Below, one piece after another: positions 31 to 59,778 of a stretch of 64,000 bases of DNA. Numbering within the stretch: position 1 is the first letter of the stretch; each line of letters opens with the position of its first letter. The DNA comes from Takakia lepidozioides (Eukaryota; Plantae; Bryophyta). The position numbers were made by a program, and so were the translations under genes. The stretch covers positions 83,824,001 to 83,888,000 of the forward strand of contig CM060731.1 of assembly GCA_030704615.1 (NCBI GenBank), in the 5' to 3' direction. Below the pieces are notes generated by a model, which was not told the DNA's origin, searched no databases, and saw nothing but the letters and a program-made list of their open reading frames with translations.

Positions 31-220
31 GGAAATGCGGCGCCGCATTTCCCTTTTGAATCTCATACTTGGAGCTGTGGGACGGAAATGCGGCACCGTA
101 TTTCCGTTCAACAACTAAGGTATGTGAAGGTGGAACGGAAATGCGGTGCCGCATTTTCTTCCAACAAGTACGGATGTGTAGCTTCGTGATGGTACTTAAC
201 GGAAATGCGGCGCCGCATTC
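31..220. repeat. Cluster of 4 copies of 22-bp palindrome A (GGAAATGCGG-CG/CA/TG-CCGCATTTCC)
   Basis: Copies at 31, 84, 137 and 201. The copy at 31-52 is a perfect palindrome, and the first three have a 53-bp period. Confidence 0.95.
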
Positions 221-657
221 GCATTTTCGCTCCAACTCATCAGACGCTGGGACGGAAATACCTTGAAATGTGAACACGTGGAGCAACGGAATTGCTGCAC
301 ATGTCGGCACTCTATCTGACTGAAGGGGCATGAGGCGGCGCGGCCTGACCGTTGGATAATGATGTTTGTTTTTCGGACGGCAGGCGTACCCTCAACGATT
401 CGAATTTCGTAATGACGCAAACTCCACGAGGAGACACTTTCGTCCAACCCTTTCGAACCCAAGTGGTGCATCACCGCCGTTTCATCTACTTTTGTCGTGT
501 CTCCTCAGTCACCCCTCTCGCGCCCTTTCCATCTGCACTCTTTGCCCTTTTCCCTCTCTCTGTTCTTCTTATGCTCGAACCTGAGAGGGGGGGAGTTCGT
601 GCACCAGACAGGAGACCTCGTCGCAAGCTCCGGAAATTATACTTCGGACGTAGGCCA

Positions 658-3600
658 ATGCCGAAGGGGAGGAAGCAGATGCGTCTACAGGAGGAGATTG
701 CCATCTCCGAGCAGCAGGCCACTCAGGCAACCCAGCCACCAGTGAGAGCTCCATGCGATCGGGCTGCGCGCAGCTGATCGAGCACCGAACCCCCCATTTT
801 GCTTCTGTAATTCTTAGACTGAATGCTAGGAGACTTGAATGCAGAACATGTTTGCATGCCTAACAGGAAAGGTGGACGTGCTGGAGGGATCGCAGGAATC
901 CGAAGAGCCGCAGGAAGAGTCCGAGGAGCTAGCTGCAGCACGTACACCCACCCGATCCCCGAGCGCGGGTATTCCTGCCGGGCCTAGCCCTCTGCGATTC
1001 AAAGACGCGTCTTCGAAGGGCAAGTTCAAAGTCCCAGAGATCGACTCGCGTTCTTCGGTCATGGAGAATCGCCAGCAGGGGTCGGGCCCTTCTCCAGCAA
1101 AGTCGAAGAAGAAGCAGCCCGTCCCTCTACTGGCTTCTGAACCGGCTCAGGCCGATTCACCCCCCCCAACGCGAATGAAGCAGCAGGGTAGAAGACAGAT
1201 TCAATTGCAGCAGACACCTTCACCTGCAAGGATGAGGAAGCAGAAGGCAATCAGGGCGACGGGCGAACAATCTCCCGCAAAACCGCTTCCACGAGCTGAA
1301 GCTCAGTTCCTGGAGGATTTCCCGCCTGCAGATGTTGGGGCCGACTCTGCTGCAGCGAAGGCAATGGGATCGACCGTTGATCTCGATTTGGTACCGGAGG
1401 AGGGTGCTGCCGCTCAACGTTCGCAGCAAGACCTCACCACCGATGAGCAAGCAGGCCCGGAGGAGGCCTCTGCAATGGCAGAATTGCCCGCACACAGGCC
1501 CCAGAGTGCAGCTCCAGTTGAGGATGCTCCAGCTGCTCAGCCACTACCGGCACCTACAGACATGTCTCCGGAGGATTTCAAAAGTGCAGCGGATAAAATG
1601 TTGGAGGAGACACACAGTAGCATTGGCAGAGTTCTGGGCAGCAGGGTATTCCAGCGGACTCTTCGAATCCCACTCTGTCGCATGGTCTCCCTTCCCATCG
1701 TCAGGCAGGCCCTTCCCGGAGATGTGGATAAGCTCAAGTTCGCATTTCGAGAAGGGTACCGTCTGGGATCGGCAGCGTTTTACGTTTCCATTGAGAATGA
1801 GGACGGCGAAACTCGTGGACCCACTGCCGATGAATTGTCAACGTGGGATACCCACTGGCACACTCGCAACCACGAATTCGAGGCGACGCTGAAGGGTGAT
1901 CCCGACTTCGGCCATATGTCGGGTAAAATGTTCTTTGTGTGGGACGGGAATCACCGACTTCTCGCCTGGTGGGAGTACATCAAGCAGAACCATGCCAAGC
2001 ACATTGGCTGGCATTACATGGTGGAGTGTGTCATCCTCAAGGTGAAGGCGGCAGACTCCTCCCTGCTCAAGAATGCCATGGCGGACCTCAACTCGTAAGA
2101 TACTCATACCCTCCCTAGCACGTTCGAAATGCGGTGCCGCATTTCGGTTTCCATTCTGGTTTGTTTCCGTGCTTCCGTGTACTGAACTGGAGAGTGTGCC
2201 TTGCAGGGTCACTGAAAATGCGTACGTGCATACCCACATGGCACACATGCTGTACAGGGTGAGGAAAACTGGTCTCACTGATCCGCAGATGTTTGCGGAA
2301 ATGCTGGAGCCCGAGCTCATTCAGAAAGCCGTTGCAAAAACAGACCGGACATGGTATCGTCTCACTATGGATGGAATGGTGGAGGTGATATACGAAGTAA
2401 GTCGTCCTCCAATTTCCCTCTGCTCATCCTTCCCCAATTTTCAGTAATGTTTCCACATGAATCGAATGTAACGCTTCTGCATGTTTTTGTTGGCAGTCAA
2501 ACATCAAGCTGGATTTGGCCCATGCCAAACGCTTCTTCATGGAAAGTGAGGGGCAGGTCAAAACGTTGCAGTCATTGACTGAGCACTTGAAGGAAGCCGG
2601 TGTCAAGTCCAGAACCAAATACAAGTCAAAGCTTGTGAAGCTGGTGGCAATTGCAGATCCGGCACTTGGAAAGGACTTCATCCCCGAGATTGCAAAACAC
2701 TATTCTCGGGCCATGCAGCCGACCATGCAATTGGAGAAACTGCATCACCTCTCAACGGCATGTGTGGAGGCGAAAGAGAAGGTGAGGTTTCAATGCACTG
2801 AAGTTCCTTCCTAGCAATAGCCACTCTCTTCCAGCTCCTGACATTGGATCGGAAATGGCAGACACGGTGGCTGTCGATCTGGAATGCATCCGAGAGCATA
2901 AGGACAATGTGGTCTTTTCCACTGGAAGTTTCCGACCCTGCAGTGGATGTGTGGCTCAACCGTATGACTTGGTGGTTCCAGGTAATTCAAGGTACTTCCC
3001 CAGATTTGCTTTTCTGACATGAATTCCCTGAACTGCTACGTGACAATGCATTTGGGAATCGCAGGTAATGTCGAATGCGAAGGAGCAAGTCGTAATGCAC
3101 ACAAATTCGTTCGGCTTGTACGTCAAATGGGATGGAACACAGACATTGGAAGACTACGTGACACGTTTCAGATGTGCGTACAAGGACAACCTTTTCGCCA
3201 GAGAGCTACAGACAGCAAGAAGGAGCGTGGAGTTTACACATCAGGAGGGAGCGGGGAAAGCTGCAATGCGAATTGTTTACAGGTGAAGCACAGCTGCCCT
3301 TGTATGCGAAGCCTGGTTACGAGGTTTGTCTCGGAAATGCGGCACCGCATTCGCATTTTATGTTTTCGGTGGCACTCTGCCAGTAGGTTGGTCTCAACTT
3401 TTGCTCACGCATGCTGACTGCCTTGCAGGTATATGAAATACGTGCTCCTTCAGACAGGGGCCCTGGCTCAAGAGCCCCCGTTCTTCATGGCTTGGACCGT
3501 GGCGGGCCCAAGCTGTGTCTACACACCCGAGATGCAGAAACAATGGCATCCCGCGCATCTCGTTGGATGCCCGTGGTACCTGGACATGTCTGGCGGTATT

Positions 3601-5782
3601 GTTGACGAGTCTGAGAAAGATCTGCACGCCTTGGCAGAAGAGAAGAGAAAGGAAAGACGTGTCCCTGCTGGGCCAAAGTCGGCAAAGGAATCTGCTGCTC
3701 TGGAAGAATCCAGAAAGGCAGCTGAGATGGCACAAAAGACGGTGGATGCAGCTGTGCAGGCCCAACAGAAGGGGTCGAAGAAGAGGACTCGCCAGCAAGG
3801 AGCAGCTGTTGTGACACCCGCCAAAACGAAGAAGCAGAAACAGCCTGTTCAGGAAGAGGGTGAGGAAGAGGACTCCGATGGAGACTTTGCAACCAGCCCA
3901 CCCCCCCAAACGCAGGCTGCCTCCCCTGTGCCCACCGTTGTCACGAGAGGCACGAGAACTGGCTCGGCAAAGAAGGCACTCTTCAACCCCCCAGGGGGGC
4001 ACCCTTTCGAGCCGGTGGAAATGAAGAGGCCGAAAGTGGCTCCCGAAACTGTAGTCCAGTGTGTAAATGAGAGTTTCTTGGCGGCTTTGGATGGACGGGC
4101 AGCCAAGTTGGCATACATGAAGACCATGGAGGGTCTGAAGGGCAGAGCACTGAAGAAGGCGACTGCCGAAGAGCCTTCCGACACCCCAGGATTTCAGAAT
4201 ATGGTCTCGTTCTTTGAGAGGGTGTGTGCAGACAAGGATTGTAGGAGGGGCGGAAATGCCACCGAGTGGTCTTGCGATATGATCATCTTGGATATTCCGG
4301 ACGGAGAGCCTGTGGAAGGACTGCAAGCTTTGCCATCTTGGAACAGGTACTCGGAGGACTTTTGGAAGAAAGGATTCGGGCTTGCCCGCATGGTGTTGGA
4401 CGACAGAGGCTGTGTGGTTGTCCTGGCGAGCAGAGGAAAAAACACTCAGACAGGAATTGCGAAGTGGACCCGCAAGAGCGCCGTCCCGATTCTGAAAAAG
4501 AAGTGGACGTGCATCAACACACTGGGCCTTCGGTCGGAAGGGAAGAAGGTGATTACGACACTGGCACTCGTCCATTCATTTGCTTGGGTGTTTTCAAATG
4601 CGGTGCCGCATTCGGTTTCTAATCGTTTTCCCCCTGTGTATGCAGACGAAGCAGTTCGATGCATACTGCTTTGTGAAGGAGAACTCCACCTTTGCTTTCC
4701 GGAAGGAGGGAGGAAAGGTTGACCCGAACTGCGACCCACTCGATTACGACGTTCTGTTCAACAACGTTCCCAAGGAACTTCTCCCTCATAGCCTCACTTC
4801 AACGGAACCCCTGCGGTACTCACGGACTCGGAGCCCTGCCTTCATTCAGACAATTATGGAGACATGCACAGACGTGGAGGGCACAGTGCTCGACCTCATC
4901 TGTGGGACAGGTATGCAGAATCTTGATCTATGCTGTTCTGCAAATTCTCGTTAGGATGTAGTTCGCAACATCTGAAGCGCCATGTGGTAATGTGTGGATG
5001 GCATTGTAACAGGTGCCTCAATGTGGGCTGGGCGGTTTTCCGACCGGCACCTCTTTGCCTACGAGGAGGATTCATCCGTGTGGGGATCCCATCTGGAGGG
5101 GCTGCAACGGAATGTGAAGGCTCCCGACAGAGCGGAAGTCTCCTCGGATTCGTCGGAGTCCGAGGAAGACACAGTGGACATTGATGCGGAGGAGAACCCG
5201 GAATACGAGTGAGTGCAAACATTGTAAGTTTGCAAAGCCTTCTGGGTCATTTATGTCAAACGAATTTCCCGACTGTGGTTCTCATTAGTCTCGTTGATGA
5301 TTGTCATGTGCAGGATTGCAGGGTCCGGGTCGAAACATGTAGGGCCTACACTTCCTGCCAGGAAGAATGTCCCGTTCTTTGCGAGGGCCGACTTCATGAC
5401 GAGCCCGGTGAGGGACTACTCCCTTCCTAGTTATGCAGCTAAACTCGCAAATACAGCGATTAGAAGAAGTGAGAATCCCAGTAAAGTAGAGCAGATTTTG
5501 GAGAGGGCTAGGGAGGACAGAAGGATAAGGAAAGAGTTGGCAGCAGCTCAGACAGGTAGACGGGTACGAAAGTACATATGTGATTCAGCGGATGAGAGCG
5601 ACGCAGACAGGGAGGAAGACGACCCAACGGAGGTGAGATGGACAGTTCCGCAAGGGGAAGATGGGATTTTCGAAAGCCTGGCCAACGAGCAGTCCGCTGG
5701 AGATGAGAGAGGCACTGAGGGGGTGGAGGAGGAGCAGGACAGTCTAGAACAGGATGAGGATTCGGATGATTTTCAAGATTAA
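658..5782 (+). CDS. Multi-exon ParB/Srx-like domain + N6/N4-methyltransferase-like fusion protein (copy A)
   Basis: Exons read through ORFs 839-2094 (IPLCRMVSLPIVR...FFVWDGNHRLLAW), 2207-2396, 2497-2781, 2862-2981, 3065-3282, 3429-~4548 (DMIILDIPDG), 4646-4910 (RSPAFIQTIMETCTDVEGTVLDLICGTG), 5013-~5208 (ASMWAGRFSDRHLFAYEED) and ~5334-5782. GT..AG junctions are visible and shared with copy B. The first exon (ATG 658) is tentative. Confidence 0.7.
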
Positions 5783-5919
5783 TAGAATTTTAATGAAGTC
5801 TCTGTAAATGTAAATTCTCTTCCAGAGTATATAAAGGAAATTCTGCCCGACATTCGTGACCCCTCTCCAGTGTGCATTCCAGCCACACAATCGCCCAAAC
5901 CACGACGCTCCCAAAATCA

Positions 5920-6681
5920 GAAATGGGGCACCGCATTTCCAAAAGGGGAACTCTAAGAACCTCTTTTGGAAATGCGGCACCGCATTTCCAAAACAGGGGA
6001 GGGACTAAATTTTCCATTTCAATGTTGGCATAGTAAAAAGTAATCTGAATTGGAAATGCGGTGCCGCATTTCCAAAATTTCCTTTGTCCACACGCCAGTT
6101 TTGGCCTCTCCCGCTCATTGCATGGATGCCACCACGCTTACAGAGGTCGAACAACGAGGTCGAACAAGGAGGTCGAGATGGCGGGATTGAAAATGCGGTG
6201 CCGCATTTCAGTATTGGGGATGGTCGTTGTTCGAACTGCAGGCCCATCAGCAAAAAATTGGCACCGCATTCCATTGTAAAAAAAAGTCGATGACGGACAT
6301 GGAAATGCGGCGCCGCATTTCCAGAACGGACATCGCAATTTGTCCATTTGCAGACCCTCTCTCGGAAATGCGGTAACGCATTCCATCGCGCTGGTCGGAA
6401 ATGTCACACTTTTCGAAGTGTTGTACGGAAATGCGGCACCGCATTCCCTTGTCCAAAAAGAAGTTTCCATTGCCAAGCTGGAAATGCGTCGCCGCATTTG
6501 CAATGCCAACCTCGTTTTCTGATCAATTTATAGACCCGTGTTGGTATTTCGTGTACCTGGACGGAAATGATGCACCGCATTTCGATGTCCGACATGGAAA
6601 TGCGGCACCGCATTTCGATCCCGACATGGAAATGCGGCGCCGCATTTCGATGCCGACATGGAAATGCGGTGCCGCATTTCA
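5920..6681. repeat. Dense cluster of ~13 copies of palindrome A downstream of the gene, ending in a ~32-bp tandem array
   Basis: Copies at 5920, 5968, 6052, 6189, ~6258, 6301, 6364, 6427, 6480, 6563, 6596, 6628 and 6660. The last four are linked by GATGTCCGACAT-like spacers. Confidence 0.95.
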
Positions 6682-7516: not shown

Positions 7517-8065
7517 CCTTGAAAAAGAGTAGCGGAGTACGCTCAATGACAGCAGCTCCCGGATGGAGGAGGAGCAGCGCGGTGGCTGGAAAAAGTTCAA
7601 GCTAACGCTGCAATTCCTCACAAACACTCCAGGGCACATTTAAATTTCCCCCTACAGGATCCTGGACCGATGAAGATTGGCTGCTGCATGAATGTAGCCG
7701 TTTCTGTTTCCTACCCTGCCATGCAAACTATGGGCAGTCACTGCCAGGTGGGCCGATAGCCACTGGACACGACGAAGTCCATCCCCTCTTCGATGTAAAT
7801 GCGGCGCCGAATTTCCATCCGGGGGGATGGACTTCGGTGGCAGATCTCAAACTATAACTTGTTGATGAGAAAGATGTATGGCTTCATCCACCGCTGCCGT
7901 GATGAACACGTTCCACCTCCGTCGGTGGGTACGTGTGACCCAGATGCTCCATTATTGGAGGCCGGACTGCTCTTCCGCTTCGTATCATTTCCAAAATCTA
8001 AGGGCTTCGTAGCTGTCCGCAAGGTCATCGGCATCCAAGTCGTCCTCAGGTCCTCCTTTGCAAGG

Positions 8066-8628: not shown

Positions 8629-9249
8629 CTTGTATTCAGTAGGCACAGGGCTCAAGATTTGATGGCACAATCAGCACAGTAGACGTGCTTCAAATGCAAT
8701 TCATGTGGATCAATAAAAACCTCATTGTGCCCTCTTTTTATTCTATTCTGTGTCCATCGTTCCGAGAATGCGTCATTGCTCATTTCGTTTGGGATTGGGA
8801 GTGTGGGTGAATTTTGCAAATGGCTGGTAGGCTGAAATGGGCCCCCATTGTACAGAGCAGTACCACCCTACCATTCGCGAAACATTGCCTTTCAATATAT
8901 AATTCTAAATAACATTGCCGAACCTCCTTCATCGGGAGGTCCTTCTCCCCCTATGACCGTGGCACCCTAAACCCTATTCCCGCGGACACTCATTTCCGGA
9001 AAATAGTGCTGCTCATGTTTTTTTCCACACTTACGACTCTGCTCATGGCTCATGCCGCTCATGGCTCATGGCTCATGAAATAGCAGCCCCCCTTAGGACT
9101 ACCAACGGCATAAAGTGTAGTCACGGCCATGACTACCCTCAGCCCCACAGCCAACGTGTGTGAGACACATGCTTTGTTAGGCAGTCATGGCGCTCCTGAC
9201 TGGCGGTGATTTAAAAAAATGGGACCCCACCTTGAGCAGAGACATCAGG

Positions 9250-18873: not shown

Positions 18874-20760
18874 TTAAATCGAAGTACTGGAGTTGACCTC
18901 AACAATATGTCCTTGATCTGGAACTCGCTCGCACGACTCGTTTTTTGACTGACGATTAGCCTCCTCCAAATTAGCGCGTGCCTTCACTGCTTCGGCGGCA
19001 GTAATTCTCCTAGTGCTATTCCTTGTCGTATTTTTTCGTGGAGGCATTGTCCACACAACATTGTTCACGTGGATCCATTGAGAAGGATCTGACGAGTTAT
19101 ACTCCCAAAGTTTTGACAGTCCTTGTACCTTTCCAAGTCTGTTGGGTTACCACCTTTTCTCGGTCTCCACCACTTCACCTTCACCTTCTTAAAATTAGGA
19201 TCCTCCCTTTCGCGGATCATGTCAAATATTGCCACCCCCATCCAGACCGGGCACGTACTTGGGTCATAAGGGCGAACGAGCACAAAAAAAACCTTTCTCA
19301 ATATCCTTGAACGGATTCAGGGATATTCTTGGTCGCTCACATCTCGGGCCACAGTAAGGTTCTAGGATTTCATCCTCTTCTTCCACATCTGGCAATATAT
19401 GTGGATGGATTCCATCTCTGTGATGATTCTTGGACCAATTTGTTTTCGGCCAGAATCCCTCAAGAAGCTGAATACGGTCGGGAGCTTCTGGAATTGGCTT
19501 ATCCAGCTCGGCGAGAATGTTTCCCCAGTACTGGTCGTATTGTTCCATTCAACCTTTGTAATGATCGTCAAGCATCATTCATTTCGTCCAAAAATCCCTG
19601 TATTTTTTTATTCCATTCTTAATGAATGACTGTTTTTCGGAGGAGTCGTCCCCGACTTCCCAGATAGGTCTCCTTGGAATGGCGTCTGGGTCTCCTTCAG
19701 GGAGCTTTGGAGTCCCGTCAGGATTGGACTTCCACATCTTCACGCTATTGTTTGTTGGAAGCCAATCCGAATCAGTAGCGGACTTCTTGTACTTCATGAC
19801 GGGCCAGCCCTCCGCATTCTTAAAAAAACGGAAGACGTGCATCTCCGAAATCCCGACCAACGTCTCCTTTCCATCCAGAATATAGCCCTTGACAAAATTC
19901 TTGAAGTCGGGAACCTCCTGAATAATCTGTGGAATGAACTGCAGATCTTGCGAGGTCATAAAAGACCTCATCAAATCCGAAAGAATGTAGGTGCTTCGTT
20001 CCTTCAGCTTCTTCGAAAGGTAGCTGAAGAACCCGTCGATGTCCTCATGGGTGTGTCCGACCATTAGGAACCCTAGCTGGATTTCTTCAAAAACATCTTT
20101 GGTGGTCAGGAGGGATAGAAAAGCAAGCATCCATCTGTTCTTATTGTCCTTCGCAGAGTTGTCCATTTGCAAGTACAGTCTTCTCGGAAGTAGACGAGCA
20201 CCACGTTTGTCTTCCGGCCTGCAGGGTTTAAGAGCATCCAAACATCTCGATTTACCTCTTAAAGTGATTCGAAGAACTCGTTTTGAAGTCGGTAATCGAA
20301 AATGTTCCTGGACTCACGACAGGTTGGCTTCTCCAGCTGGCGCAGGCAACGTGCCAAAGAACCAATTGTAAAGTTTGAATTTTCCTTCCAGAACTCAAGA
20401 GAATACTGACTGTAAGCTCCATCACCATGTCCGTGCGTGACCATTCCCGTTAGTGAAACTGGAAGCTGACCCAAACCAGAAATCATTTTATTTGGAGTCT
20501 GTAGCCTTCCTCCAGCTATGGTACAGTCTTCTGCACAACTCTTGGTGCCTCAAATGTTTATCAAGCGCTCGTTTGTGTGTCATCTGTTCCGCACTTCTCT
20601 TGACAGACTTTCTGATCAGGTCCTTGAACATCTCACACTCCATGCACTTCGCAAATGTACTCCTAGTTTTACGAACCTCCACGTTAGGAAAAATCCGACT
20701 CCGGATGCGGCTAACAGCCGACTGCGAGACTCCTTCCAACCCGAAAAGTCTGTTGGTCTG
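18874..20760 (-). pseudogene. Sola-like / DUF7869-type DDE transposase, frameshifted
   Basis: FAKCMECEMFK...HLRHQ; LYLQMDNSAKDNKNRWMLAFL...FLMVGHTHEDIDGFFS; several consecutive minus-strand frames. The C-terminal part reads VWMG...VKVKWWRP. Confidence 0.75.
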
Positions 20761-22433
20761 TTACAATAAGGTAGGGTCAGGAAAGGAACTTCCACTGGAC
20801 AGTGGAGGTTCATAGGAGTGCACTCTTTGACCGATTTTCGGAAAAGAGTGTCATTTACTGGTAGATCCCTATGTAACAATTATGATGCCAGAAAGATAAC
20901 GGCCGATAACGGTGGTTCAATGGTCTCGCACTCGTGCTTATAAAGCAGTATGTATTTCGCATTCAATGTTGTCCAAGTGGATGATGGCCTGACGCCGATG
21001 ACAAGTGCAGCTATGACACTCGGCCGAGAATGCGGCAAGCGTAAATGAGTGACAGAGGAAATATTCCAAGCCTTAATCCGCCGAATGTAGACATGGTCAG
21101 GAGCAATTATTCCTAGCGGCAAAACGCCGCAAGAGGATCTGACTTGTACATTTCATTTATCGTCACGTGGGGGGTGTGGGAAATATCCCACGGGGTTATA
21201 ATTGATGATCATGTGCAAGGGATCATTAACGTCATATTTTCTCGTTCATTCATCTGTTTTTTCATTTCATCTAGTCATTCGTAAAATGGATGGATAGAAT
21301 GGAAAGGATGAATTGGATGATATTTGCATGGATGTTGGATGGAACACGCGCGACCGTTCGATTTCGAAAGGACGCGATGGTTCAGATCCTTTGCGACGGC
21401 ACCATATAAGGGGTGTGGTCGTTCAGCCCACCCTTTCGCCACTCCATTGTGTACGCGGAAGCGCTGCGGAAGTGGTAAGACCGAGTAGCGCTAGAAAAGA
21501 GAGAGTTTTGAAGAGCGGAGAGCGTGAAGAGCAGAGACTGTGTTGTGCATGGTGCCGTAAGAGCTGAGAGAAGAGAGCGTGCAGTTCAGTGCAGTGGAGG
21601 AAAGGAAGCAGACAGCGGATTCAAGTGCAGACAGGAGACGAGAAGGAAACAGAGCGTAAGGGAGAGCGGAGCGGAGCGGTGGAAGCTTAAGGGTCAAGCA
21701 TTTCACGTCAGCAACAGGGGCACCGAAATGGCTCACGCATCTAGCAGATAATGTTCTCGTTTATGCATGTGGTTTGATGTCATTCTCTCTTGCTCGCTTG
21801 TCATTCTCTTATTCTCTCTTTGTTCTGTTTGTTGATTTGCTTTTCTTTTTCAGCATCGCCCACGTCGCTGTTGGTTTGCTTCTCTTCCTCACTTGCTTTC
21901 GTTCCAGAGGTTATAGAGCACCATTTGATTCTTGCATGTCATGTTTCGTGAATGTGTTGTCTTGTCCGATGTGGAGCATCTCTTTTCAATTCATGTGGTT
22001 TCAAAGCTGTTTCAATTAGTTTGAATTGATTAAAGCTGTTTAGGTGTTTCAATGCATTGCTGCTTCTCTGCTGGTGGTTTGTATGGTGGTTGGTATGGGT
22101 GGTTTGTGGTCCTGGTTTACTGGTGCTGCTGGATTATTAGGGTTATGGATTAGGGTTATGGCGGGTTAGGAGCATGGTTTTTAGCGATTGTTTTTCCGAA
22201 TTTCCGATATTTGATAACGGGTTTTTCTTCGGGGCTAGGCAACTCTAGTAGACTAGTCTCCGTAGACCACTAGACCTCTAATAGACCTCCATAAACTCCG
22301 ACAGGACAAACCACACGAACCTCGCCTGCCCAGTGGAGGTTCCTGCGTGTTACTATGCCAAGGCACAACATAAGGATGTATTGAGATAGACTTATGTAGG
22401 TTCCTCCCCTGCGTTGATTTTTTGTTCTGTCAG

Positions 22434-23013
22434 TATAAAAAGAACGGGCGTAGGAGTGCACACGGTGGCCAAAGATGGTTCTGAGACCGTCGTCGACATC
22501 TGTAAGAGGCCAAGGAGACAGAATCGAGTAAGCATCAACGAAGCAGAAAACCAGGACGAATCACTGGTTGTATCAAAAACAAAAACCTTCAAGAAGAGAT
22601 CTGAGAATCAAATATCAGATGTGGGCTCTGACGTGCGAACCTTCATAAATCCGGGCACTGACAAATCAATGTTCGAGGGAGTTATTTGACGGGAGACAAC
22701 GGAGGAAACAAAGGAAGAGAAAGATGAAAGTGATGACTGTAATCTTCACTCTGATTCATATAATGACATTTCTGTAGGAGATAGTGAACAGTACCCGGGA
22801 TCCGTCCTTCCATCCTCTCCAGGATACAGTCCTCACTCTCCTCAGTATGCAGTCCTTGTAAATTCTCCAGAATATGTCCCCGCTGATTCTCCAGAATATG
22901 TCCCTGCAGATTCTCCTCAGTACGTCCCTGGAGATTCTCCAGAATACATCTCTGGAGATTCTACGACATATACACCTAGAGAGTACTCCCCTGAAACCTT
23001 GAGGATGATTTGA
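22434..23013 (+). pseudogene. Acidic protein or exon ending in SPxYxP tandem repeats (Pol II CTD-like); one in-frame stop
   Basis: The frame of ORF 22414-22689 continues past the TGA at 22687 to SSPGYSPHSPQY...NSPEYVPADSPEYVPADSPQYVPGDSPEYISGDSTTYTPREYSP, encoded by a 24-bp repeat unit. Confidence 0.55.
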
Positions 23014-23287
23014 GAGAGCCTCCTGTAGTTATTGTAGATACAAGAAAATGAAAAGATGAAACTCATCTTACAAAAGAATATCGATTTATTGTAGAAATTA
23101 TATATTCGTTATAGGAACAATTTTGAGACCGCATGATGTATGGAATGTCGAGACGAGCCTTCTCTGCATAAATGTATTATTCTTCTTATAAGTGAAATCG
23201 TTTTCTCCTCCTGAATTGAACTCTTTTATCTGTCAGCTATGAGCGTATGAATTGTTGAACCTCCACTGGACAGTGGAGGTTACTGTC

Positions 23288-23815
23288 ATGGGAATCTTGT
23301 ATGGTTGTCATGATATGTGTCTGAGGACCGAGGTGGTTTGTTCTGTGGACAGCAACATTACCCCGAGGGATTGTATTGTTGGAATGTGCAAACCTATCTG
23401 TGGTTCATTTGTTTATCGAAAATCTCCGAATTTCAAGAATGATCACCTGGCAATTTTTGAGCTGAACCCGGAGATCACAGAATGGGGCATTGTACCCGTT
23501 GGCACACCTCCGGACCATAAGTTCCGGTTCCAATACAAGATTGGTGCAGAGGTTGCCGAGCTCAAATATGCAGATGTGGTCGACGTAGAGCTGGAGATGG
23601 ATGTGGAATTTCCGATGTTGGTAATGTTTATGATGGAAGATGGTAGATTTCCCAGAACGTTTGGCTTCAAACTGGAGGTACGAATTCTAAGGAAGGCCAT
23701 GATGAGAGAGTCCATTCGGGCGGGGTTCACATATTGCGACGATAGTACTCAATTTACAGATGAAGGTTTTTGCATGGCTTGGGGTATTTTTTTGGATGTG
23801 CTTTACTTAAAAGTA
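23288..23815 (+). CDS. Unknown ~175-aa globular protein or domain upstream of the ParB-like exon
   Basis: Long open frame within ORF 23252-23968 with protein-like composition. No family recognised. Confidence 0.35.
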
Positions 23816-23819
23816 AGGA

Positions 23820-26800
23820 GATTGCAAAGACGCGGGAGGAGGAGGTTGCAAGAGCGAAGCCAAAGAAGGGAAAATGGAAATCCATTAACGCCGGTGGTGA
23901 TGACAATGAAGCCGGTACATCAGGGGGAAAGAAGAAACAAAAGGAGGAGATGGATCCTGCTTTCATGACAGATATCAAGAAACCCAAGGCTGCAGACACA
24001 TTCGACAAAGACAAGTGTGAGAAGATGCTGGAGAGGCTGGAGCAAGATTACAAGGACATGTTTCCTTTTGGGTTTGAGGCGACCCAGGACGTCAAAGTTT
24101 CCATGATGGAGCTTGCTCCCAGAGATATGGTGTACAGGCCCCTAAATGTGAAGCACAAAGACGAAGTCAAAACGCGTCTTTACCAGCTCCGGGTGTTTGA
24201 CTCCAAACATCCAGTTTATTTGATTATTGCAAACCCCGAGAAGCCTATGGAGATTTCTAGTTCGAAACCTCGAAACTGGAAGGAGGTGGAAAATTCCAGA
24301 TTCTTCGTCATCGGTGGACAACACACGATCATTGCTGCCAAGGTAAATTTCCCGACAAAATCCAATTTTTGTAACAACATGAACCTCCACTGGACAGTGG
24401 AGGTTCATGAACTTTAAACAACATGCTTGTTAGGTCGATATCATTTCTGATCTTATTCAATTTTGTCGCAGGAACTTGTGCAAGACGTAGACGACGACAA
24501 TCTTAAGAAGTACTACACTGACTGGCCCGCAAAGATTATATGGTCAAAGGATCTGATGAGGCTCGTGAAGCTATCTAAGCTCCTAAACGACCCGAATAAG
24601 GCGCAGAGATTTGACACAACATTTCCCGAGAAAGTTGCACATGCCTGAAATTTCTTCGAGCTGAGGGGGAGGCCGAAAAAGTACAACGATCACACAACGA
24701 AGTCGGAGACTAGACAATGGAAGGTAAATGATTCATTGTGTTTTCCGTTCCTTTTGCTAGAGAACCAAAATATTCTCAAGCTTGGATTTAATGTGATGAA
24801 CGGAGACCGCATTACGAAGCAGGAGACAGTACAAAAATAGCTTCATAAGGGAGGGTGCTACAATGAACGAGCGAGATGGTTCAACATTCGGAAATTCGAC
24901 ATGATGGGGTCTTTTGTAATGTGTCTTGTTTGGTAATGAGGTGCTTGTCCAGTTCTTATTTTCCCAATCTATTTATGTTCTCCACCTGTAACAGTTCCGC
25001 AAATGTGCCGCAAAAATACTTGAAACATCATATGATCATGAAAACGTGATGGTGCGGAGAACGCTTCCAAAACTTTTCATGCTCATTGGGTTTTTCAAGG
25101 ATTTTCTAGGTACACTCTTGGAACTGTTCCTGGTGAAGAACATGAACAGATTGGACAAATTTGACTTGGAGGAGCACCGCATTCCGAAGCAGGAGACACT
25201 ACAGAAATAGCTTCAAATTACAAGGCACAACAAGATGGACGGAGATGAATTCACAATCGAATCATCACTTGGTGTATAGTATAATTGACAAGATAGTTGT
25301 GACTATTGTTTCATCTCAAGATTAATATCAAATATTGAATGAAATTTCTAACTTTGGCCCTGATATTTTTCGTAGGAATTTATGCAAGCATGTCAACTCA
25401 TACTGGAGATGAGTAGCGTGAATGAGGCCATGGTTCTGGTTCTTTGTGGCGAAGACGTATGGAACCTGTGGGAGGAGGTTTTCAAACAGTGGGAACAAGG
25501 AAGCTTATTGATATTTTCGGGATTCAGTGTAAGGGTGAACAGCTACTGCTGAATAAAACCGCTATCGCGACTGCAAGGACTTAATACCAGGCAGTTGAAA
25601 AGAGTGGCGGAGAAAATCCTAAACAGAGACATTTGCATTCGGGGAACGAAATTCAAGGGCGCGGACAAATCCAAAAACACAATGAGCGCGTATATTGACC
25701 AAATGAAATTGCGACGGTTTATTATCGACGATGTAATGGAAGTCTTAGGGTGGCCTCGAAGGAGCAAATAGAACCCGGAACCGTATACCAAACAGGAGTG
25801 GCGTGATGTTAAAAAAAAATACAACTTCAACAAAGCTGAGTTTGAAACATTTTGAGATAGGCTCGGGAACGACTACATTGTTAGCAAACAGAAGATGAAT
25901 ATGGAGACGCAGCCAATGACTGCTGCCTTCAAGAAGTATGTCTTGTCGTGCAAGCAGACCTTCGAGGATAACCAGAATGCCCTGGCGATTCTACGCACGA
26001 GCTTCAGGTCCCATTACACACAGCTGGGGGGAAACCAGAAATTTGCTGATGCCAGATCACGGTTGGGACTTGCACCAAAGAATCGGTTCGACGACATATC
26101 CATGGTGTTCGTCAATACAGTTTGTGATGATGACTCTGTTGTCTTCGAGACAAATGACTACTCAAATATCTTGGATGCTTTTGTGGCTCGGCAACTCATG
26201 TCTAGTGCTTTTGTGTTTTTCTCCACACAAGAATCATCGGGAAATCTTGTGTCATACATCCGGAATGGCCCTGGATCAAAATCGTTTATTATCCGACAGG
26301 GTTATTACATTCCCGGCGAGTTTGAATCACATTACAAGAGCTGCACGACTATATTCTCCCGGATGGTCCTCTGCCTTGACTACGTATTTCCGGCAACAGC
26401 TGAGGAGATGGTGAATCTGGACGACCACATTCAAACTGTTTTGTTATCGCCGGACCCAATTAATCCCGTTATCCAAGGACCAGATGTAGACCCGACCTCA
26501 CAAGAGATGGAGTGCAAGATTTACAATCATGAGCTGAGGCCGGACACCTATGATTACCTGGTTTTTTTTTTTTGCAGGGACGGGATGTCTTGTGTGAACA
26601 TTTTCGGAGGATTGGCAATGACATACGTTCTGCTTGTAAGCGGATTCTGCATCTTGGAATTGTCTGTGTTTTTAGTTTTCCGGATTTAACTCTCGTATTA
26701 TTGACGTTGTCGAAAAAGCGTGTTTAACCTGTGTCTGATTGTTCCATTTTGTTAACCTCCACTGGGCAGTGGAGGTTCATGTTATTGGAGTTGTGGGTGT

Positions 26801-27554
26801 TTTGGGTGTTTGTTATTCTGTAGATTGGTGTGTTTGGTAGTTGTCTCAAAAGAAAGCCTAACCCTTTCAATCTATCGATGGTTGGTGTTCGTCGGATTTA
26901 TTTTGATATCATTGTTTGGTTTCATTGCAGGAAAGAAATATTTGTGTGCTCGACATAAACTTTGTAACAAAAAAGAAATTTTGTAGAAGCAAGGTGGAGG
27001 CCTATTTTAGGACCCTCCAGATTGACAATCAGACTATCGCAGGAGACGGAGATGACGGTGACTCATTGCAGGATGACGAAGTGGACGAAGATGATGATGA
27101 CGAAGGACACGACAAGGATCTGGACGAGGAAATGGAGGAGAAACAATAAGAGGACGACGAGGAGGAGAAAGATGAATATGAGAACATGGAAATCGTCAAC
27201 GGAGTCCAGGGGCAGATGCGGCTAATGTTGGAAAGGGAAAGAGAGGGCCAGGAAATTTCACGGTTGGATAATCTAGGTAGTACTCCAAATACCCAAGAAC
27301 GCGTTGCGCCACAAGATGTACACAATCTGGACAGCTCTTCCTCCAGTTCCGATAACACCACGAATAAGAATCCGGCTTCTCCAGGCGGACAAGAAGCGAC
27401 ATCGACGGAGTTAGTTGAAACCCTCGGTCAAGGGTTTACACCTGTGGAAGGTGACGAGCCATTCATTATGTCACCGGATCCCGTTAACAATCGTCGTGAG
27501 CTGGTGTCCCAGAATGTCACTCAGGATCTGGTTCTGGATGTAGGTAACGAATGA
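23820..27554 (+). pseudogene. ParB/Srx-like + methyltransferase-like fusion gene (copy C, distant homolog, disrupted)
   Basis: MVYRPLNVKHKDEVK...FFVIGGQHTIIAAK (ParB-like); later HELRPDTYDYLVFFFCRDGMSCVNIFGG...|ERNICVLD (degenerate SAM-binding segment); acidic tail; several in-frame stops. Confidence 0.55.
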
Positions 27555-27799
27555 CAATTAGTGAAAGTTTATTCGTACACACTTTTGAATACAATATGAC
27601 AATATTGTAATTATACATACTTGTGAGTGGAATAATCCGAATGTTATTTCCATATGACAATATTGTAATTATATATAATCCCAATGTTTTTCCCATATCC
27701 GTCTTTCTGGACTTCCGAATAAAACATATTTCCACCCGGATACATATTTCCCTTCGCACACCTTTGTGGACATCCACTAACCGATTTGGATAACTTTTC

Positions 27800-28450
27800 T
27801 TGTAGATCCAAGAATCCAATTCGGAGGAAATGACACACACAAGAAAAGGATCAAAGGACACTCAAACGGTGAAGAGACACGTGGATCTGACAGCGAGGGC
27901 CAGGTCACCTGAGCCGGTTCCGCAAGTGACCTCCATTGTCCAGTCGACGTTGCCATCAAGGGACGCAGGGATTGAGTCGGAGAATCCTCCTACTCGCGGG
28001 GAAGGAGAAGAGACAGAGCACCACAATCGAGTAATCCAACAACAGATCCCAATTCGGGTCAAACATTGGCTTTTTTCTTATTACTCTTATTATTGGTCTT
28101 TCAGTCTAATCTTCGGTACTGCTCAATTCGGTAATTTTGTCAGATCATTTTGGACCACCATAGTCGTCATCCGTGGGATTTTTCATTAATTTCCTGTAGA
28201 TTTGTGAGACGACGTCTGAGGAGATCAAACACACGAGGACTGACTCTATCGACACTGAGACGGTGAAGAGAAGAGTGGATCGAACAATTACTGTCGCTCT
28301 ATATGAGCCGGTCATACAAGTTACCTCCACTGGACAGTCGAGGTTGCCATCTGGCTCCACAGAGAAGGACGATAACGTTGGACGTAGAGATGGGAAAGAG
28401 GAGGAGCAGCCTGCCCAGGGATCTCAGCGGCCCACTCCAAAAACGGTAAT
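27800..28450 (+). repeat. Tandemly duplicated exon-intron unit
   Basis: 27800-28055 and 28195-28445 share an acceptor context and GACACT..ACGGTGAAGAG...GAGCCGGT..CAAGT.ACCTCCA.TG..CAGTCGA.GTTGCCATC. Confidence 0.7.
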
Positions 28451-48528: not shown

Positions 48529-49779
48529 CGCCGTTGATCAAAGGAACACAAGAAAACACAGCAGCAGTGAGCATCAAGTAAAAACACAAACATAAACTGG
48601 AACTGGAAGGCGCCGCCATTGCGAAGCCGTCAGTGTACTTCTATCTGGCGTATAGTCAAAGAAGGTGCAGGTAATGATTAACGAAATCTTGCAACCCGTC
48701 TCCACCAAGATTCTCGCACCCCCGGGTTATTCCTCTTCCTCTCCGGGTTTATGCCAAAAAGAGGAATGTTAGCTCGGTAAAGCGTGCATGCGAGGAAGAA
48801 AGATCTCACGATGAGGAGATGAGATCTCACACTAAATCACACTATTTATCCAACGTAGGTACACACGTACATAGGGATAAACACACTCAAAGTACACCGG
48901 GCCGCTTAGGCTTCCAGGTAATTCTTTATATAATCCCAGGAGGCTAATATGCACAGACAGGCTGGTCACTTCTGATAGGCTGAATAGATTATGTCCATAT
49001 GCTCATCCAGATAGGATGCCACGTAGTTGTTATTAGGATAAGCTAGCTGTTAACTCCAGACAGCCTACATTATTAGGCCAGGGGGGATGCCTCGGCGTGA
49101 GCCTGGTCACGTGAGCGCGTGAGCGCAACTGCGCTCACGCCACGTCACCTTGCGCAAATGCCACGTCACGGGGCTCAGTCCACGTCATCACACGTGAAGG
49201 CCGCGTCACCACGCGCCCAGAAAAGTGGAGTGTATTCCCGCGGATTGGCACCCTTTACCGCGGAAACAAGCTGGACGACATAATAAAAGGCATTGAATAA
49301 AGGATGGATGAATGTACAGTTGGATGATAAACAGATGGATGAGTGTGAAAAATGTATGTAGATGGATGAATGACGGATGGATAAGAGTAAAATGGATGAA
49401 TGTATAATGGATGTTGAGCAATGACAAAAATTCATGACAGGAAGATGCATGACCAAATCTTTTGACGAATGCACAACGTATATGAAATGAGTGTGGAAGG
49501 TTTGTGGGGTGGATTAAAGAGTACAGAGGATGAATGTACAATGGATGTTGTACAAAGGAAGCTTTCATGAATGGAGCACGCATGAATACAGTGTAGATGA
49601 ATGCACAATGGATATGAGAAGAGTCAGGAGGTTTGTGAGATGGATTCATACATATAGCAATTTAAACGAAAGTTGATTCTGTGATTATTATTTGTTCTAA
49701 AGGAACAACTACGGTGGAGGAAAGGGATTCAACGTTTTCCAGATAATATGAAAATGAATATTAAAAGAATACAGTTCAG

Positions 49780-52700
49780 TCTGACTCAGAGTCAGTACAA
49801 TGTATCCCCTCTTCCTCTGCATCTAAGTCTAAGTATTTTAGAACACCGGATCCACGCTGGATACACCTACGGCTGGCCACTAAAAAGTCAGGGGATAGGG
49901 ACTCGGCCGCGTGAAGTGCCATTGCTTCGGCATAAACAGGAAGCAGAAAATTGGAAAGGGGGCTGTCGAAAACAGACTCGCCAGAAATGACTGTATCTCC
50001 TGAAGATCCACCGCTGCCTTTCCTGAAAGACAGCCTGAAAAAGTTATTACTGTAACTTTGATGTTATCGAGAAATTGAGTATGACTCCCAAAGAGGGTTT
50101 AGCACTTACTCACATGAAAAGTCGTTGTCGACCTGCTTATCTTCGGGATCGTCATCATTTTGAATTTGAATCCGATCAGTCTGTGTGCCTGAAGTGGAGC
50201 CAGACAAAAGGGGGAGGAGCACGGTGTTGTAGAGGTCAGAATCACCCTCCATGCCAAAAAGGCTTCTTCCGCCTGCCTTGCATGCGTGGTAAGTTGCTCC
50301 TGCACCAGACAGGAGAACATGAACAGTTTGGAGGGGGGATTTAAGCAGATGAAACTGTTGAAAGGAAACCAATTCGGAAGGGAAAAAACGAACCTGTGGA
50401 CACAGAAAGATCGACCACCCGTGCAGAGCGGTGGCTGCATGACTCCAGCAGTATTTGCATGAATGCTGGTGACTTTTCCTTTGCACCTCTCCAGGGAGTG
50501 CCATCTGGTCTCTTCAGAGTCTGACTGGACTGCATGAAGTTGTACAAAATGTCATCGACATGGGGCTCATAGGGGGGGTTGACGAAACAACCCTGGTCAG
50601 AAATCTCAAAGCTGCGGATGGAGGATGGTGTCTTTGATGTGCGAATCCTCCGCAGGCAGATCGCCTCGAACATCCTCGTCTGGCAAAGATAGCAGGTTAG
50701 TGTGGTAAACACAATCTATAGTGGAAGTGTGTACATCGGCTATTCAGAACTCTGACACAAAAAAATCATGAATCGGTGATGATCGGTGTCGATCATAAAA
50801 CATTCTACTAGAGTGGAGCTGCAGAGAAAATTGAAACTCATGATCAAAGCACAAGCAGAAGGGAGACGGCATACCAGCTGACCAGGGAAACCCCTTTCAC
50901 AAGGTAGAGGCTGTTCACACAATTCCATGTGCGCAAAACTTCAAACCCTGAAGACTTGAGGTATGATGCCAATGCCCGACGACTATCATTGTCACATGAC
51001 TGAAAAAGCAGAAGTGTCCCTGCATCAGAGAGGAAATTGTTACAGAACCCGAACACCCAACTCCAGTAGTTGTCCTCGAATTTGTTCCAGCCTGGCGTCT
51101 TGCCCTTTGGAAGAACTTCTGGCACAGCCTGGCCATCCGGGATGTCGAGAATGACAATGTCGGCCGCATAAGTTTTCTGCACACCGCACACGAAGGTGGG
51201 ACCTGTGCTCACCTGCAACAGACATGTTTTTTATAAGAACGATGGCAAGATTGTTTTCAAAGAACGAGACTGAAATACTGCCAACGAAACTTTCAGAGAA
51301 AAAGGAAAGAAACTGGAATTCTCACCAGATTGAGGAATGAGATTATATTGTCCCAGGTAGGGGATGGCACCCCAGTGTATCCTCTCTTTCGACTCTGCAT
51401 CATCGAAAGCCAACCCTCATTAACAATTTTCATCTCTCCTGCTGAATCAGAACGGGAAGGGTGTGGCTTGGCATCGAACACGCACTGAAGAGTGCGGGTA
51501 TATCTTCCAGCAGTAAAGTCCTGCCCACTCTCCATCTCCTTTTCATTCTCCTTCCCCTTGTCCTTTTCCTTCTCTTTGGACTTGTCTTTGTCCTTTGGCT
51601 TTGCTGGTGAGATGGCTATGACATCAACAGCCTTGTCTTTTGGTTTGCGGCCCGCCTTCTTTCCCTTCTGCGGCGTTCCCTGAGCATCAGGCTCCTTGGC
51701 AGCCAATGTTGCTATGTTTCGTTGATACTCTTCGTCAGTCAAAGGCGCCAGCATCTCAGCGTTATTGTTCAAGTATTTCATATGCTGTTCTTGAAAGGTC
51801 GTGTGCTCAGGTGGGCAGTCAAGGTACCACCCACAGTCTCTGAAGTGAGAAGGACTCCAGTCCTTCAATATCCCTGCAGTATACATGGTTGGATCGTTTG
51901 CAGGGTCCGACCACATGTCAAGATAGTCGGGAATTCCGCTCAGGTGATTTCCTTCCATAAGCACATATTTCGTGTACCTGAAAAAAGGAGATAAATCCCA
52001 ACCCACAAAAGCGCTCAGTGAGTAAGATGCAAGTAGAACAGAAAGAATAAAACATAGATTGAAATGGCTCTGAGAACTGCTCCAAGGACCTTTCAGGACC
52101 ACACTACTGCTCCAGATATGAATGTCGTCAACGCCATTCAGAACATTCCATTCAATGACACTGTAAATACACCCTAATCCAGGTGAATGCAAATTATCGT
52201 TTAGAAATGACACAGACATAGAAGTGAATGTCGTCAACGACATTCACTAATGAAGCCAAATTATTACTTAAATGAAGCAAAATCACAGGATGGAAATCAA
52301 AAAATTGAGTAAGGAACCCTCCAGGAAAACTCAATGCACATTCATAACGAACCTATCACTGAGGACCTCACAACATCACTGTATGTGAATGGCGTCAACG
52401 CCATTCACAAAAATACAAAAAAGAAACCAATTACTTAGCTCCCCAATCCATGTAAATTGAATTTGTCGCTGTTGAATAATACAGACACAGCTGTGAATGT
52501 CGTCAACGACATTCACTTTGGATTTCTTAAAACAGAGCTTATCAAGCCTCCACATTCATCGCAAGAGGCAAAAACAATGCAGAACAACTGAATGTCTGCA
52601 TTGACATTCAGCAAAATGAAGTGAGGAACCCTCACTGTAACCTCTATGGACATTACAAAAATTTAAATAACTCTGAGGACCTCTCAACAACTCCGTATGT

Positions 52701-55409: not shown

Positions 55410-56265
55410 TTTCTCTCTTGCTCTGCGTCTCTCTCTAAGGGAAGTAAAATAAAGAGACTTTCTTGCTCTTTCGTATTCTAGAAGGAACCCTCTCCAGCTT
55501 GACTACCACTCTCCCTCTAAGCGCGAAAAGTAGAAAAACGCAGTGACTCCCGATTTCTTGCGGGATTGCCTGCGTTCTTGCGTGTCTCTAGAAGCATCGG
55601 ATTCCCTCCCGCGTGACCGTTACACATAGTCGTTTCCTTATTAGTGCACATGCCAGCAATTGGTGTACAGCTGTTCGTATTCAGTTATGGATGTCTGACG
55701 TGTGCCGCCCAAAAAAAACGGCGTGTTCTTTATTAGAACGGGTTCAATATTTAAAAATAACAGCGAATCCCAGAAATTGATGCGCAGTCTTAAACAAATA
55801 AATATAAATGAACGAGAGTTTGATGACAAATTTTGGAATATCATACACGGTCATCCTTGTTAGCCAAACCCCACATTCGTTTCACATTTGGAACTTTCCA
55901 GGTGCGCATGATCATTTAGTAGTAGTATATAGATACATTTACTTAATCTGCAATCCCATTCTCAGATCCTGTGGCATGCTTCCAGGAAGTCGGCTTTGTT
56001 ATTGGGTTTATTGATGAGGTTCTGATTAACGGTTTAACAGTTGCCGACACTGCCCCTAGGGATACTCTGACCACTGGGCCCACAAGAAAAGTAATTAAAA
56101 TGGACGGCTGCATATCTGGAAAGAATAACATAATATGCACAGTCGTTATCTGAGCTTCCTCCGCCATATTCTCTGCTCATTCTTCAACTGTGTTCTGGAG
56201 ACAGCAGTAAACCGATTTACACTAGATCTGCGATAGCAAGGTACAAACATACTCGAGGAAGGAAG

Positions 56266-59200: not shown

Positions 59201-59778
59201 AGCCATCTCCTCCAACCGTTTGGCCCGTGAAGGTGGGAACACATCTCAGCTTTCAGGAGATTGAAATGCTGGAGGAGGCAGGTTTTTCCCTTGCGAGACA
59301 ACCCCAACTCCATGCATGTGCTACTACTTCTGCGTTCTCCCGGGTCCCCCCGGCAAATCCTGACTTGTGGCCAACCAAACGAGATGGAAAGCTCGTTCGG
59401 CGTTTCCCTCCAACCGCTGAACACTTTGGCAAAGTGGAGTCCGCAAGAATGCTCCAAGCTCGTGTCGGAAGCACCACGGAAGTACCCGATCCAGGATATG
59501 GTCGGGTATTCACAATCATCACTTCCACATCTGCTGTTCATGACAGGACCTACGACATCACGGTTTCCAATTTCCCCAATTGCACATGTCCTGATTTTGT
59601 GAATATGCTATCAACCAGTTTGGGCAAGAGAGGTAAATTCATACCCTGCAAACATTTGTATTTCATATTTTTGAGGAGGATGGTTTGCGATCCCAAACGT
59701 GACAACTTCATTCACCAGGCCACTATGAGTTTCAACGAGGTCGATACTCTTTTGCAGCGGGATACAACACATGGGTAG
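56266..59778 (+). pseudogene. MULE-type transposase with GCM-like N-terminal Zn domain and C-terminal SWIM finger; several frameshifts
   Basis: HDGHPW...CNGHLRCDNLNC...CKFC...HFGFHNHP (GCM/WRKY-like); FLMFDHVKR...GFMADSAQA...CLFHW (MULE D..D..CxxH); NLAETVHN (E); CTCPDF...CKH (SWIM). Confidence 0.8.

Follow-up and report, generated by a model that had tools for sequence, protein, structure and literature searches.

The 64,000-nucleotide stretch of the Takakia lepidozioides genome analysed here (contig CM060731.1, positions 83,824,001 to 83,888,000 of the forward strand; hereafter the window) contains three transposon-like elements, A, B and C, with a separate palindrome for each. A and B appear to be Mutator-like DNA transposons carrying an accessory gene, and this report concerns the palindromes found in the introns of that gene and the protein it is predicted to encode. 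The elements and the end of A were placed as follows.

before base 1 to ~9092: element A, with its own palindrome (palindrome A)
9011..9092, plus strand: probable right end of element A, with GCTCATG repeated six times before CCCCCCT; resembles the end of B
~18.7-28.5 kb: element C, with its own palindrome (palindrome C)
49076..60378: element B, with imperfect terminal inverted repeats containing GCTCACG/CGTGAGC repeats; ends approximate

Terminal GCTCAYG repeats and the CCCCCCT end were common to A and B, and the palindromes of the two elements did not cross-match (at least 6 mismatches). A target duplication, of 9 bp in the Mutator-like type, was looked for at the termini of B and none was found. 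Loose contig ends fell at 49084, the left edge of element B, and the element was multi-copy: in a DNA run from the same sample, summed contig depth, which is not a copy number, rose from ~550 outside the element to 200,000-450,000 inside it, the large intron included.

Palindromes in the introns of genes A and B

The following features were annotated in element A.

839..5782, plus strand: gene A, modelled coding part; nine exons, GT-AG introns, open over 1372 codons
839-2094, 2207-2396, 2497-2781, 2862-2981, 3065-3282, 3429-4548, 4646-4910, 5013-5208, 5314-5782, plus strand: exons of gene A
2095..2206, plus strand: intron with one palindrome A (2126-2145); homologous open reading frames (ORFs) P0002-P0004 stop at the same position
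3283..3428, plus strand: intron after MRIVYR with one palindrome A (3334-3353); codon and phase equal to those of the 944-nt intron of B
4549..4645, plus strand: intron with one palindrome A (4595-4614)
32..221, unstranded: upstream cluster of 4 palindromes A
5920..6680, unstranded: cluster on the downstream side, 13 palindromes A
7796..7815: lone palindrome A, flanked by two divergent paralogous ORFs

The true start of gene A may be the ATG at 571. Its predicted protein consists of a ParB/Srx-like domain (WDGNHR), a helical region and an amino-methyltransferase fold. Palindrome A is 20 bp long (GAAATG-CG-G-CG-C-CG-CATTTC) and occurs 21 times in the element; 20 sites at no more than 4 mismatches from the consensus were counted in 1-9090, where 200 shuffles gave an expectation of 0.005. 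The first-pass annotation had proposed that three introns of gene A each contain one palindrome A and that the exons contain none. This was borne out, with the sites starting at 2126, 3334 and 4595, and the best match to the palindrome in the exons, as in the remaining five of the eight introns, had 8 mismatches in 20 positions. Given 825 nt of intron and 4119 nt of exon, the chance that all three sites would be intronic is 0.005. The gaps between the single sites of A measure 1208, 1261 and 1325 bp, and the three introns occupied rank first, in a post hoc comparison, among the 56 ways of taking 3 from 8 introns when these are ordered by evenness of spacing between the flanking clusters. The array of palindromes A has a tandem duplication period of 32 bp.

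The two divergent paralogous ORFs inside element A (6938-7639, minus strand; 8002-8628, plus strand) are 46% identical and were assigned no function. The minus-strand ORF had no Pfam match, and the pair had no match in the 39 groups of relatives described below.

The accessory gene of element B lies on the minus strand, and the features of this element are as follows.

49830..55409, minus strand: gene B, homolog of gene A; first exon seemingly frameshifted in this copy
51978..52921, minus strand: intron after MRVVYR, 944 nt, with seven palindromes B at 52120, 52226, 52387, 52495, 52590 (degenerate), 52701 and 52822
54715..55031: palindromes B, four degenerate copies, located in what is predicted to be the first intron of gene B; its acceptor is uncertain
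56134..59778, plus strand: transposase of B, in divergent orientation to gene B; putative SWIM finger at the C-terminus, frameshifted, without palindromes

Gene B matches gene A at 42% over the ParB exon. The introns of the two genes agree in codon and phase after NS/NK, YE/YA, FQ/SQ and VYR, and the intron before TKQF/TRMF agrees as well once the donor in B is placed at 50882. The statement that the orthologous intron after MRIVYR/MRVVYR holds different motifs in the two genes was also upheld: in B this intron has 944 nt and seven palindromes B, six of them perfect and one with 4 mismatches. All 11 palindromes B sit in two introns of the ParB gene. None was found in the ends of B or in its transposase, the nearest lying ~3 kb from an end, and none was found in the introns orthologous to those at 2095 and 4549 of A (the latter at 50680-50882). 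Of the three motif-bearing introns of A, one therefore has an ortholog in B that also bears a motif. In the transposase itself, the SWIM match (Pfam E 0.0053) fell short of the curated cut-off, and a CLFH motif spotted by eye is presumably the CxxH motif of Mutator-like transposases.

One palindrome design is shared by relatives

Relatives were obtained from a metagenome scan, the best 80 of 198 related stretches being collapsed to 39 groups (loci are numbered with the prefix L). An unguided palindrome search of these loci returned dispersed palindrome families near the ParB exon. A, B and the relatives have a common design of 20 bp, 6-bp arm-CG-N-CG-N-CG-arm', which is to be read with CpG decay in mind. 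The arms are GAAATG in A (N = G), GAATG(G/T) in B (N = T), and AACTTT, TACTTT, TTCTYT, AACTCT, TATGGT, CATRTG or GGCTT in the relatives. At least two sites of the design were present in 25 of the 39 groups, and at most one in each of 5 shuffles; L012 and L052 passed this site count and were dropped as AT-rich tandem arrays, leaving 23 loci for analysis. When sites were picked on their arms alone, the core was present in 121 of 131, compared with 9% of background 8-mers.

The three CpGs of the core had not decayed alike. Of the outer CpGs, 39 of 42 in A and 20 of 22 in B remained intact; for the central CpG the figures were 6 of 21 and 0 of 11, respectively (p ~2e-7 for the contrast in A, with copies treated as independent). 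In decayed relatives all three were mostly lost (outer 63/300, central 20/150). Retention of the outer CpGs and loss of the central one fits a site made of two 9-bp half-sites around a free centre, as would be expected for a dimeric protein.

Arms were shared among the copies within one element, and distant arm types did not cross-match. In a protein tree (FastTree, 40 rows, with L076 and L081 left out) the arm types followed the clades (four clades, supports 0.96-1.0). L081 was rejected as a member of the family, being a viral locus in which a phage head-gene region gave a chance match. The design was retained across proteins only ~35-45% identical, and specificity appears, from the sequences, to have drifted in the arms of one shared design; the relatives were too decayed for specificity residues to be assigned. 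The first-pass annotation had held that the motif is replaced when specificity changes. Each lineage does have its own motif, as that view requires, but the motifs of A and B are diverged versions of one shared site and not unrelated replacements.

Other repeats were seen at the same loci. A second palindrome type (AAGCTC/GAGCTT-like) is interleaved in upstream arrays at L021:5337-6060, L035:460-830, L040:7640-8200 and L055:8590-9200, and L018 and L025 have other palindromes upstream. AT-rich tandem arrays of 25-50 bp, off the CpG-triplet design, swell introns or flanks at L004:11430-14530, L012:3980-7530, L052:7620-9720 and L047:11400-14900. At L014:11245-11265 and L048:7325-7345 the exon end encoding ATFWCQ resembles the AACTTT/TACTTT palindrome; this exon end may be the seed of that motif, or the likeness may be coincidence.

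Sites avoid exons and fill conserved introns

The exons of the relatives were mapped with the family profile, and 150 sites were assigned in the 23 loci. Within 2.5 kb upstream of the ParB exon there were 115 sites in 52.0 kb; the non-exon span of the gene had 27 in 28.2 kb, the exons 1 in 39.0 kb, and the rest of the loci 7 in 174.8 kb. The lone exonic site (L030:10197) lies at an exon edge and is ambiguous, overlapping an exon end whose codons (ATFWCQ) resemble the motif. On these counts the proposal that the sites leave coding sequence undisturbed held family-wide, and intronic palindromes are a real, family-wide feature. The accompanying proposal, that sites are kept along the whole element, stood for A and C and failed for B, with its 11 copies in two introns of the ParB gene, and for most relatives, in which 115 of 150 sites are upstream.

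This upstream excess bears on the main rival explanation, in which the accessory protein does bind the sites, but to repress or time its own gene and the divergent transposase at long range in the manner of KorB, and not to counter silencing. A divergent transposase of the B type sits in this upstream region in 9 of the 39 groups, KorB gave the best ParB-fold row in a wide fold search of the protein (see below), and CTP (cytidine triphosphate)-based long-range gene regulation by KorB is described in the available text of bioRxiv 10.1101/2025.10.10.680097. On the other side, A has single sites at intervals of ~1.1-1.3 kb across the gene body and beyond it downstream, more than promoter control would require, and a role in chromatin marks is indicated by the methyltransferase fold of the fusion and by the CpG-rich half-sites. 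We regard KorB-like control as unlikely.

Because copies within an array are not independent, expansion events weigh more here than copy counts. The position of the VYR intron was conserved in 22 of the 22 relatives read, and a site was present in it in 8, all of them within one clade (support 0.86; boundaries by eye). In L075, L035 and L054 the arms of the intronic site equal those upstream. In L048 the intron after FWCQ has grown to ~1.2 kb with 6 sites, compared with ~84 nt in A and B. Another intron, the one preceding the methyltransferase domain (113 nt in B), holds 5-7 sites in L014, L021 and L055. Together with the VYR intron of B, these arrays show that a conserved intron has been expanded and filled with motifs at least three independent times, in three different introns. 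There is modest evidence that the VYR intron (A, B and one further clade) is a preferred position. Isolated single copies also remain in introns whose flanks have diverged. In two relatives the exon after the VYR intron is inverted (L008:11860-12192 and L036:3736-4044).

Neutral spread by slippage and hairpin-driven conversion, with copies surviving where coding constraint is absent, would account for some of this. Many arrays are tandem duplications, such as those with periods of 51 bp in L014 and 32 bp in A; flanking bases are common to copies, and kin share motifs by descent. A neutral process sits poorly with a fixed 20-bp design having the same core in proteins so diverged, with outer CpGs that are spared as the central one decays, and with the persistence of isolated copies between diverged flanks, and we consider it improbable.

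Transcript evidence for the introns

Confirmation of the introns was sought in runs X9 and X10, which were classed as RNA by guess, no listed run being on record as RNA. One X9 contig spliced two motif-free introns of A (2782-2861 and 2982-3064) with GT-AG ends. None of the three motif-bearing introns of A was bridged among the X9 and X10 contigs listed. In B, a 465-nt X9 contig at depth 12 aligned over 414 nt up to 51975. Its leftover 51 nt would contribute 12 x 51 / 404 = 1.51 to the bin at 52640-53043, where the upstream exon ends, and 1.51 is the depth listed for this bin; X9 depth in the bin at 52236-52639, inside the large intron, was 0. From these two depths we infer that the contig splices out the 944-nt intron, the joint itself not being among the rows listed. 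These contigs support two motif-free introns of A directly and the large intron of B indirectly, and leave the motif introns of A unbridged among the contigs listed. Other X9 contigs kept short introns of B.

An X10 contig matched 4597-4906 with unrelated sequence upstream, beginning inside the palindrome of the intron at 4549-4645. It is possibly a rearranged copy broken at the palindrome.

An action at the RNA level, with hairpins in introns influencing splicing or the making of small RNAs, would suit the intronic location of the palindromes, their capacity to fold and the retention of B introns in some RNA-type contigs. Many copies, however, lie in the intergenic clusters of A, the arm sequence itself is conserved within an element beyond what pairing demands, and most introns of the family splice without palindromes. 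An RNA role is thus very improbable.

Palindrome C and the genes of element C

Element C carries a palindrome of its own beside and within broken genes.

19100..20760, minus strand: DUF7869 transposase of element C (Pfam E 6e-39, and homologs); reading frame interrupted by stops and frameshifts
20787..20810: palindrome C, 24 bp, just upstream of a conserved acceptor in the transposase gene
22449..28450, plus strand: broken gene of C; GGQH motif distantly ParB-like

The first-pass annotation had placed palindrome C in introns of both the transposase gene and the ParB-like gene. The positions 20787, 24382 and 26754 were recovered. The latter two lie in predicted introns of the ParB-like gene, namely stop-containing GT-AG segments between coding stretches. 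The transposase intron was supported at its acceptor only: homolog matches begin at 20760, and blastx found no upstream exon. The placement did not hold for two degenerate copies, at 27928 and 28322, which lie in probable exons (seemingly duplicated coding exons). Further palindromes C occur at 23258 and, just upstream of the ParB-like gene, at 22318. A separate open stretch of ~150 codons occupies 23290-23760, just downstream of the palindrome at 23258.

Kinship of the C gene with the genes of A and B is unproven, since its ParB exon matched the A/B profile with a probability of 2.4%, which is not significant, and its C-terminal exon matched the methyltransferase profile with a probability of 0.5%. 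Viral glycoprotein clusters returned as kin of the C-terminal exon had low recognition in the atlas search and were rejected as noise.

The arrangement in C bears on a further alternative, in which the palindromes serve as enhancers bound by the transposase and coding constraint keeps them from exons. Precedents are offered by the subterminal repeats known from CACTA or hAT elements and by internal transposase sites in other superfamilies, and in C one copy adjoins the transposase gene and another is near the left side of the element. In B, by contrast, neither the ends nor the transposase have palindromes, the nearest being ~3 kb from an end; other terminal repeats are common to A and B, and in the relatives only 7 copies occur in the 174.8 kb away from the ParB gene. 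We give transposase enhancers little credence.

The predicted accessory protein

Homologs of the accessory protein formed 879 clusters at E <=0.001, the named ones being from Riccia sorocarpa, Selaginella moellendorffii and two Adiantum species. No Pfam family was matched by a ParB or methyltransferase exon of A, B or C, and PDB sequence searches gave nothing significant. Structures were predicted on Riccia homologs and not on the window proteins. The 906-residue homolog P0160 was modelled with a confident N-terminal domain (predicted local distance difference test, pLDDT, >90), for which ParB, Noc and Srx (sulfiredoxin) chains made up 8 of the 10 top Foldseek rows. The top match was ParB 6sdk (probability 0.92, E 0.22), and the best ParB-fold row of the wide fold search was KorB (Z 6.9, root-mean-square deviation 2.9 over 93 residues). 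In 38 of 47 proteins the GxxR box has the sequence GNHR. These models give moderate support to a ParB-CTPase/Srx fold with a GxxR box at the N-terminus. A ParA-like gene was not found among the 21 ORFs of the Pfam scan.

The C-terminal domain, modelled on the Riccia homolog P0159, matched the fold of beta-class amino-methyltransferases (CcrM, E 9.6e-13), and PF01555 matched several Riccia homologs. The motif order is that of the beta class, with the motif IV strand first and the S-adenosylmethionine (SAM)-binding motif last. In A and B, motif IV has the sequence DIPDG, and all 25 of 25 regex matches conform to D-[ILMVF]-P-x-G; the canonical form (D/N/S)PP(Y/F/W), as in DPPY, was absent from 182 homologs (P0005-P0186). 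The SAM motif is retained in A, Riccia and Selaginella and degenerate in others. The altered motif IV argues against ordinary writing of N6-methyladenine (6mA) or N4-methylcytosine (4mC).

Proposed function of the palindromes

On balance we find it probable, though by no means assured, that the palindromes are parS-like loading sites for the ParB-fold protein of their own element, working as VANC does on VANDAL elements to counter silencing. The predicted accessory protein would bind each palindrome as a dimer, and once bound may clamp and slide as ParB does, spreading over nearby DNA; such spreading would keep the transposon active against host cytosine methylation. New palindrome copies would arise through short duplications, be purged from exons and be kept in introns and the 5' region, and one intron would sometimes swell into an array. 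As the preference of the protein drifted, the arms would drift along. Lacking the canonical catalytic motif, the methyltransferase fold is less likely to write 6mA or 4mC than to serve in base contact or recruitment. The separate GCTCAYG repeats at the ends, which A and B share, are the probable sites of the transposase, the palindromes being centred on the ParB gene.

A more specific version may be put forward tentatively. The protein, encoded by transposons of seed-free plants, would be a parS-like sliding clamp in eukaryotic chromatin, loading at CpG-triplet palindromes ~1.2 kb apart in introns and coating the element; its altered methyltransferase fold would sense or block 5-methylcytosine, and arms and specificity would co-diverge so that each family protects itself. 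We consider this possible and rather doubtful.

Several observations weigh against the loading-site reading. The anti-silencing outcome, preferred because of the analogy with VANC21, rests on that analogy, and site binding and changed protein specificity are themselves inference. Motif and protein are inherited together, so the tree cannot show co-evolution, and inheritance in cis alone predicts the match between arms and clades; in L040 and L067, moreover, the arms of the intronic copy differ from the upstream array. The sites of B leave the element uncovered, avoidance of exons alone would be expected of any insertion under coding constraint, and 16 of the 39 groups had no assignable motif of the design (14 with at most one site, and the 2 dropped). 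In C, the palindrome is of a different design, 24 bp without a CpG core, and two of its copies are those in probable exons. The ParB fold matches were not significant by E-value. Fold searches of P0160 gave no helix-turn-helix match, and the helical region after the ParB fold was modelled at low confidence.

The interest of the loading-site reading is that ParB-based self-targeting has so far been proposed only, and for algae. The family offers matched pairs of protein and site, with a common core and at least 7 arm types, for a direct test of self-recognition and its turnover, and lets one ask whether a bacterial sliding clamp works on plant chromatin. If true, it would amount to a set of orthogonal 20-bp DNA-targeting modules.

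Comparison with known systems

In the titles and abstract openings covered, supplements aside, there was no account of the land-plant family, of intronic placement or of the shared CpG-triplet core. Statements on the papers cited below refer to the portions of their text that were available.

Bacterial ParB-parS, KorB and Noc resemble the present system in the ParB-CTPase fold (predicted here), the GxxR box (GNHR) and repeated palindromic sites near the gene. They differ in that here no ParA partner was seen (21 ORFs scanned), the introns are eukaryotic and the sites have 20 bp, parS sites being 16-bp. Fusion of ParB to an N6N4-methyltransferase fold occurs in bacteria and phages, and the nucleotide used by a ParB-type fold cannot be predicted (bioRxiv 10.1101/2025.10.10.680097). 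ParB-helix-turn-helix fusions occur in chlorophytes and chytrids, and the available text makes no mention of Selaginella or Marchantia (PMC4738411). The available text of bioRxiv 10.64898/2026.05.21.726589 does not mention 'ParB'.

The motifs bound by VANC21 of Arabidopsis lie in non-coding parts of VANDAL21, introns among them, and VANC relatives use different motifs (PMC5735166). As in A and B, an accessory gene is accompanied by family-specific short motifs in introns, intergenic and terminal non-coding regions, the motifs are often tandemly duplicated, and related families have related but different motifs (PMC5735166). VANC motifs are 8-9 bp and not palindromic, unlike the 20-bp palindromes described here, and VANC function has been shown experimentally (PMC5735166), whereas the A/B protein is known from its predicted ParB and methyltransferase folds, both of bacterial types. 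Pfam scans returned no VANC-type family; no direct comparison with VANC was made.

ParB-methyltransferase accessory genes have already been proposed for algal transposons, and self-binding is proposed in both the Ectocarpus and the Plavaka papers (PMC12477816; bioRxiv 10.1101/2025.02.11.637652). The accessory gene of Sola1-1_Ec32 (Ectocarpus) has, like that of A and B, a ParB-like domain fused to an N4C/N6A methyltransferase domain; it lies on the strand opposite the transposase and is proposed to bind and modify its own element (PMC12477816). Sola1-1_Ec32 belongs to a brown alga, and the main text of the paper does not contain 'palindrom' (PMC12477816), while A and B appear Mutator-like and their motif IV departs from the canonical form; the comparison is one of architecture only. 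Plavaka PAG2/PAG3 of red algae likewise place a ParB-like protein beside tandem inverted-repeat arrays, the proposed binding sites (bioRxiv 10.1101/2025.02.11.637652). There, however, ParB is fused to a 2-oxoglutarate (2OG)-oxygenase with the methylase as a separate gene, and the arrays adjoin the gene and are not dispersed in introns, with no shared core described in the available text (bioRxiv 10.1101/2025.02.11.637652).

Beta-class amino-methyltransferases (CcrM, M.BceJIV and rotifer N4CMT; Marchantia DN4MT1, bioRxiv 10.1101/2021.02.12.428880) agree with the present family in fold and motif order. They differ from it in that motif IV here is D-x-P-x-G and never canonical, and that the SAM motif is degenerate in some members.

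Other features of the window

The window is plant DNA, with degenerate PPR-like repeats, CACTA transposase fragments and a cation/H+ exchanger fragment. CACTA/EnSpm transposase fragments (Transposase_21, Transposase_24) flank element C at 9100-16000 and 28991-32700. A degenerate array of PPR-like repeats, so labelled by eye, occupies 35688-44150, with many frameshifts and a CpG observed/expected ratio of 0.40. An inverted pair of ~150 bp (10398-10553 and 45564-45719), 35 kb apart, represents two copies of a small repeat.

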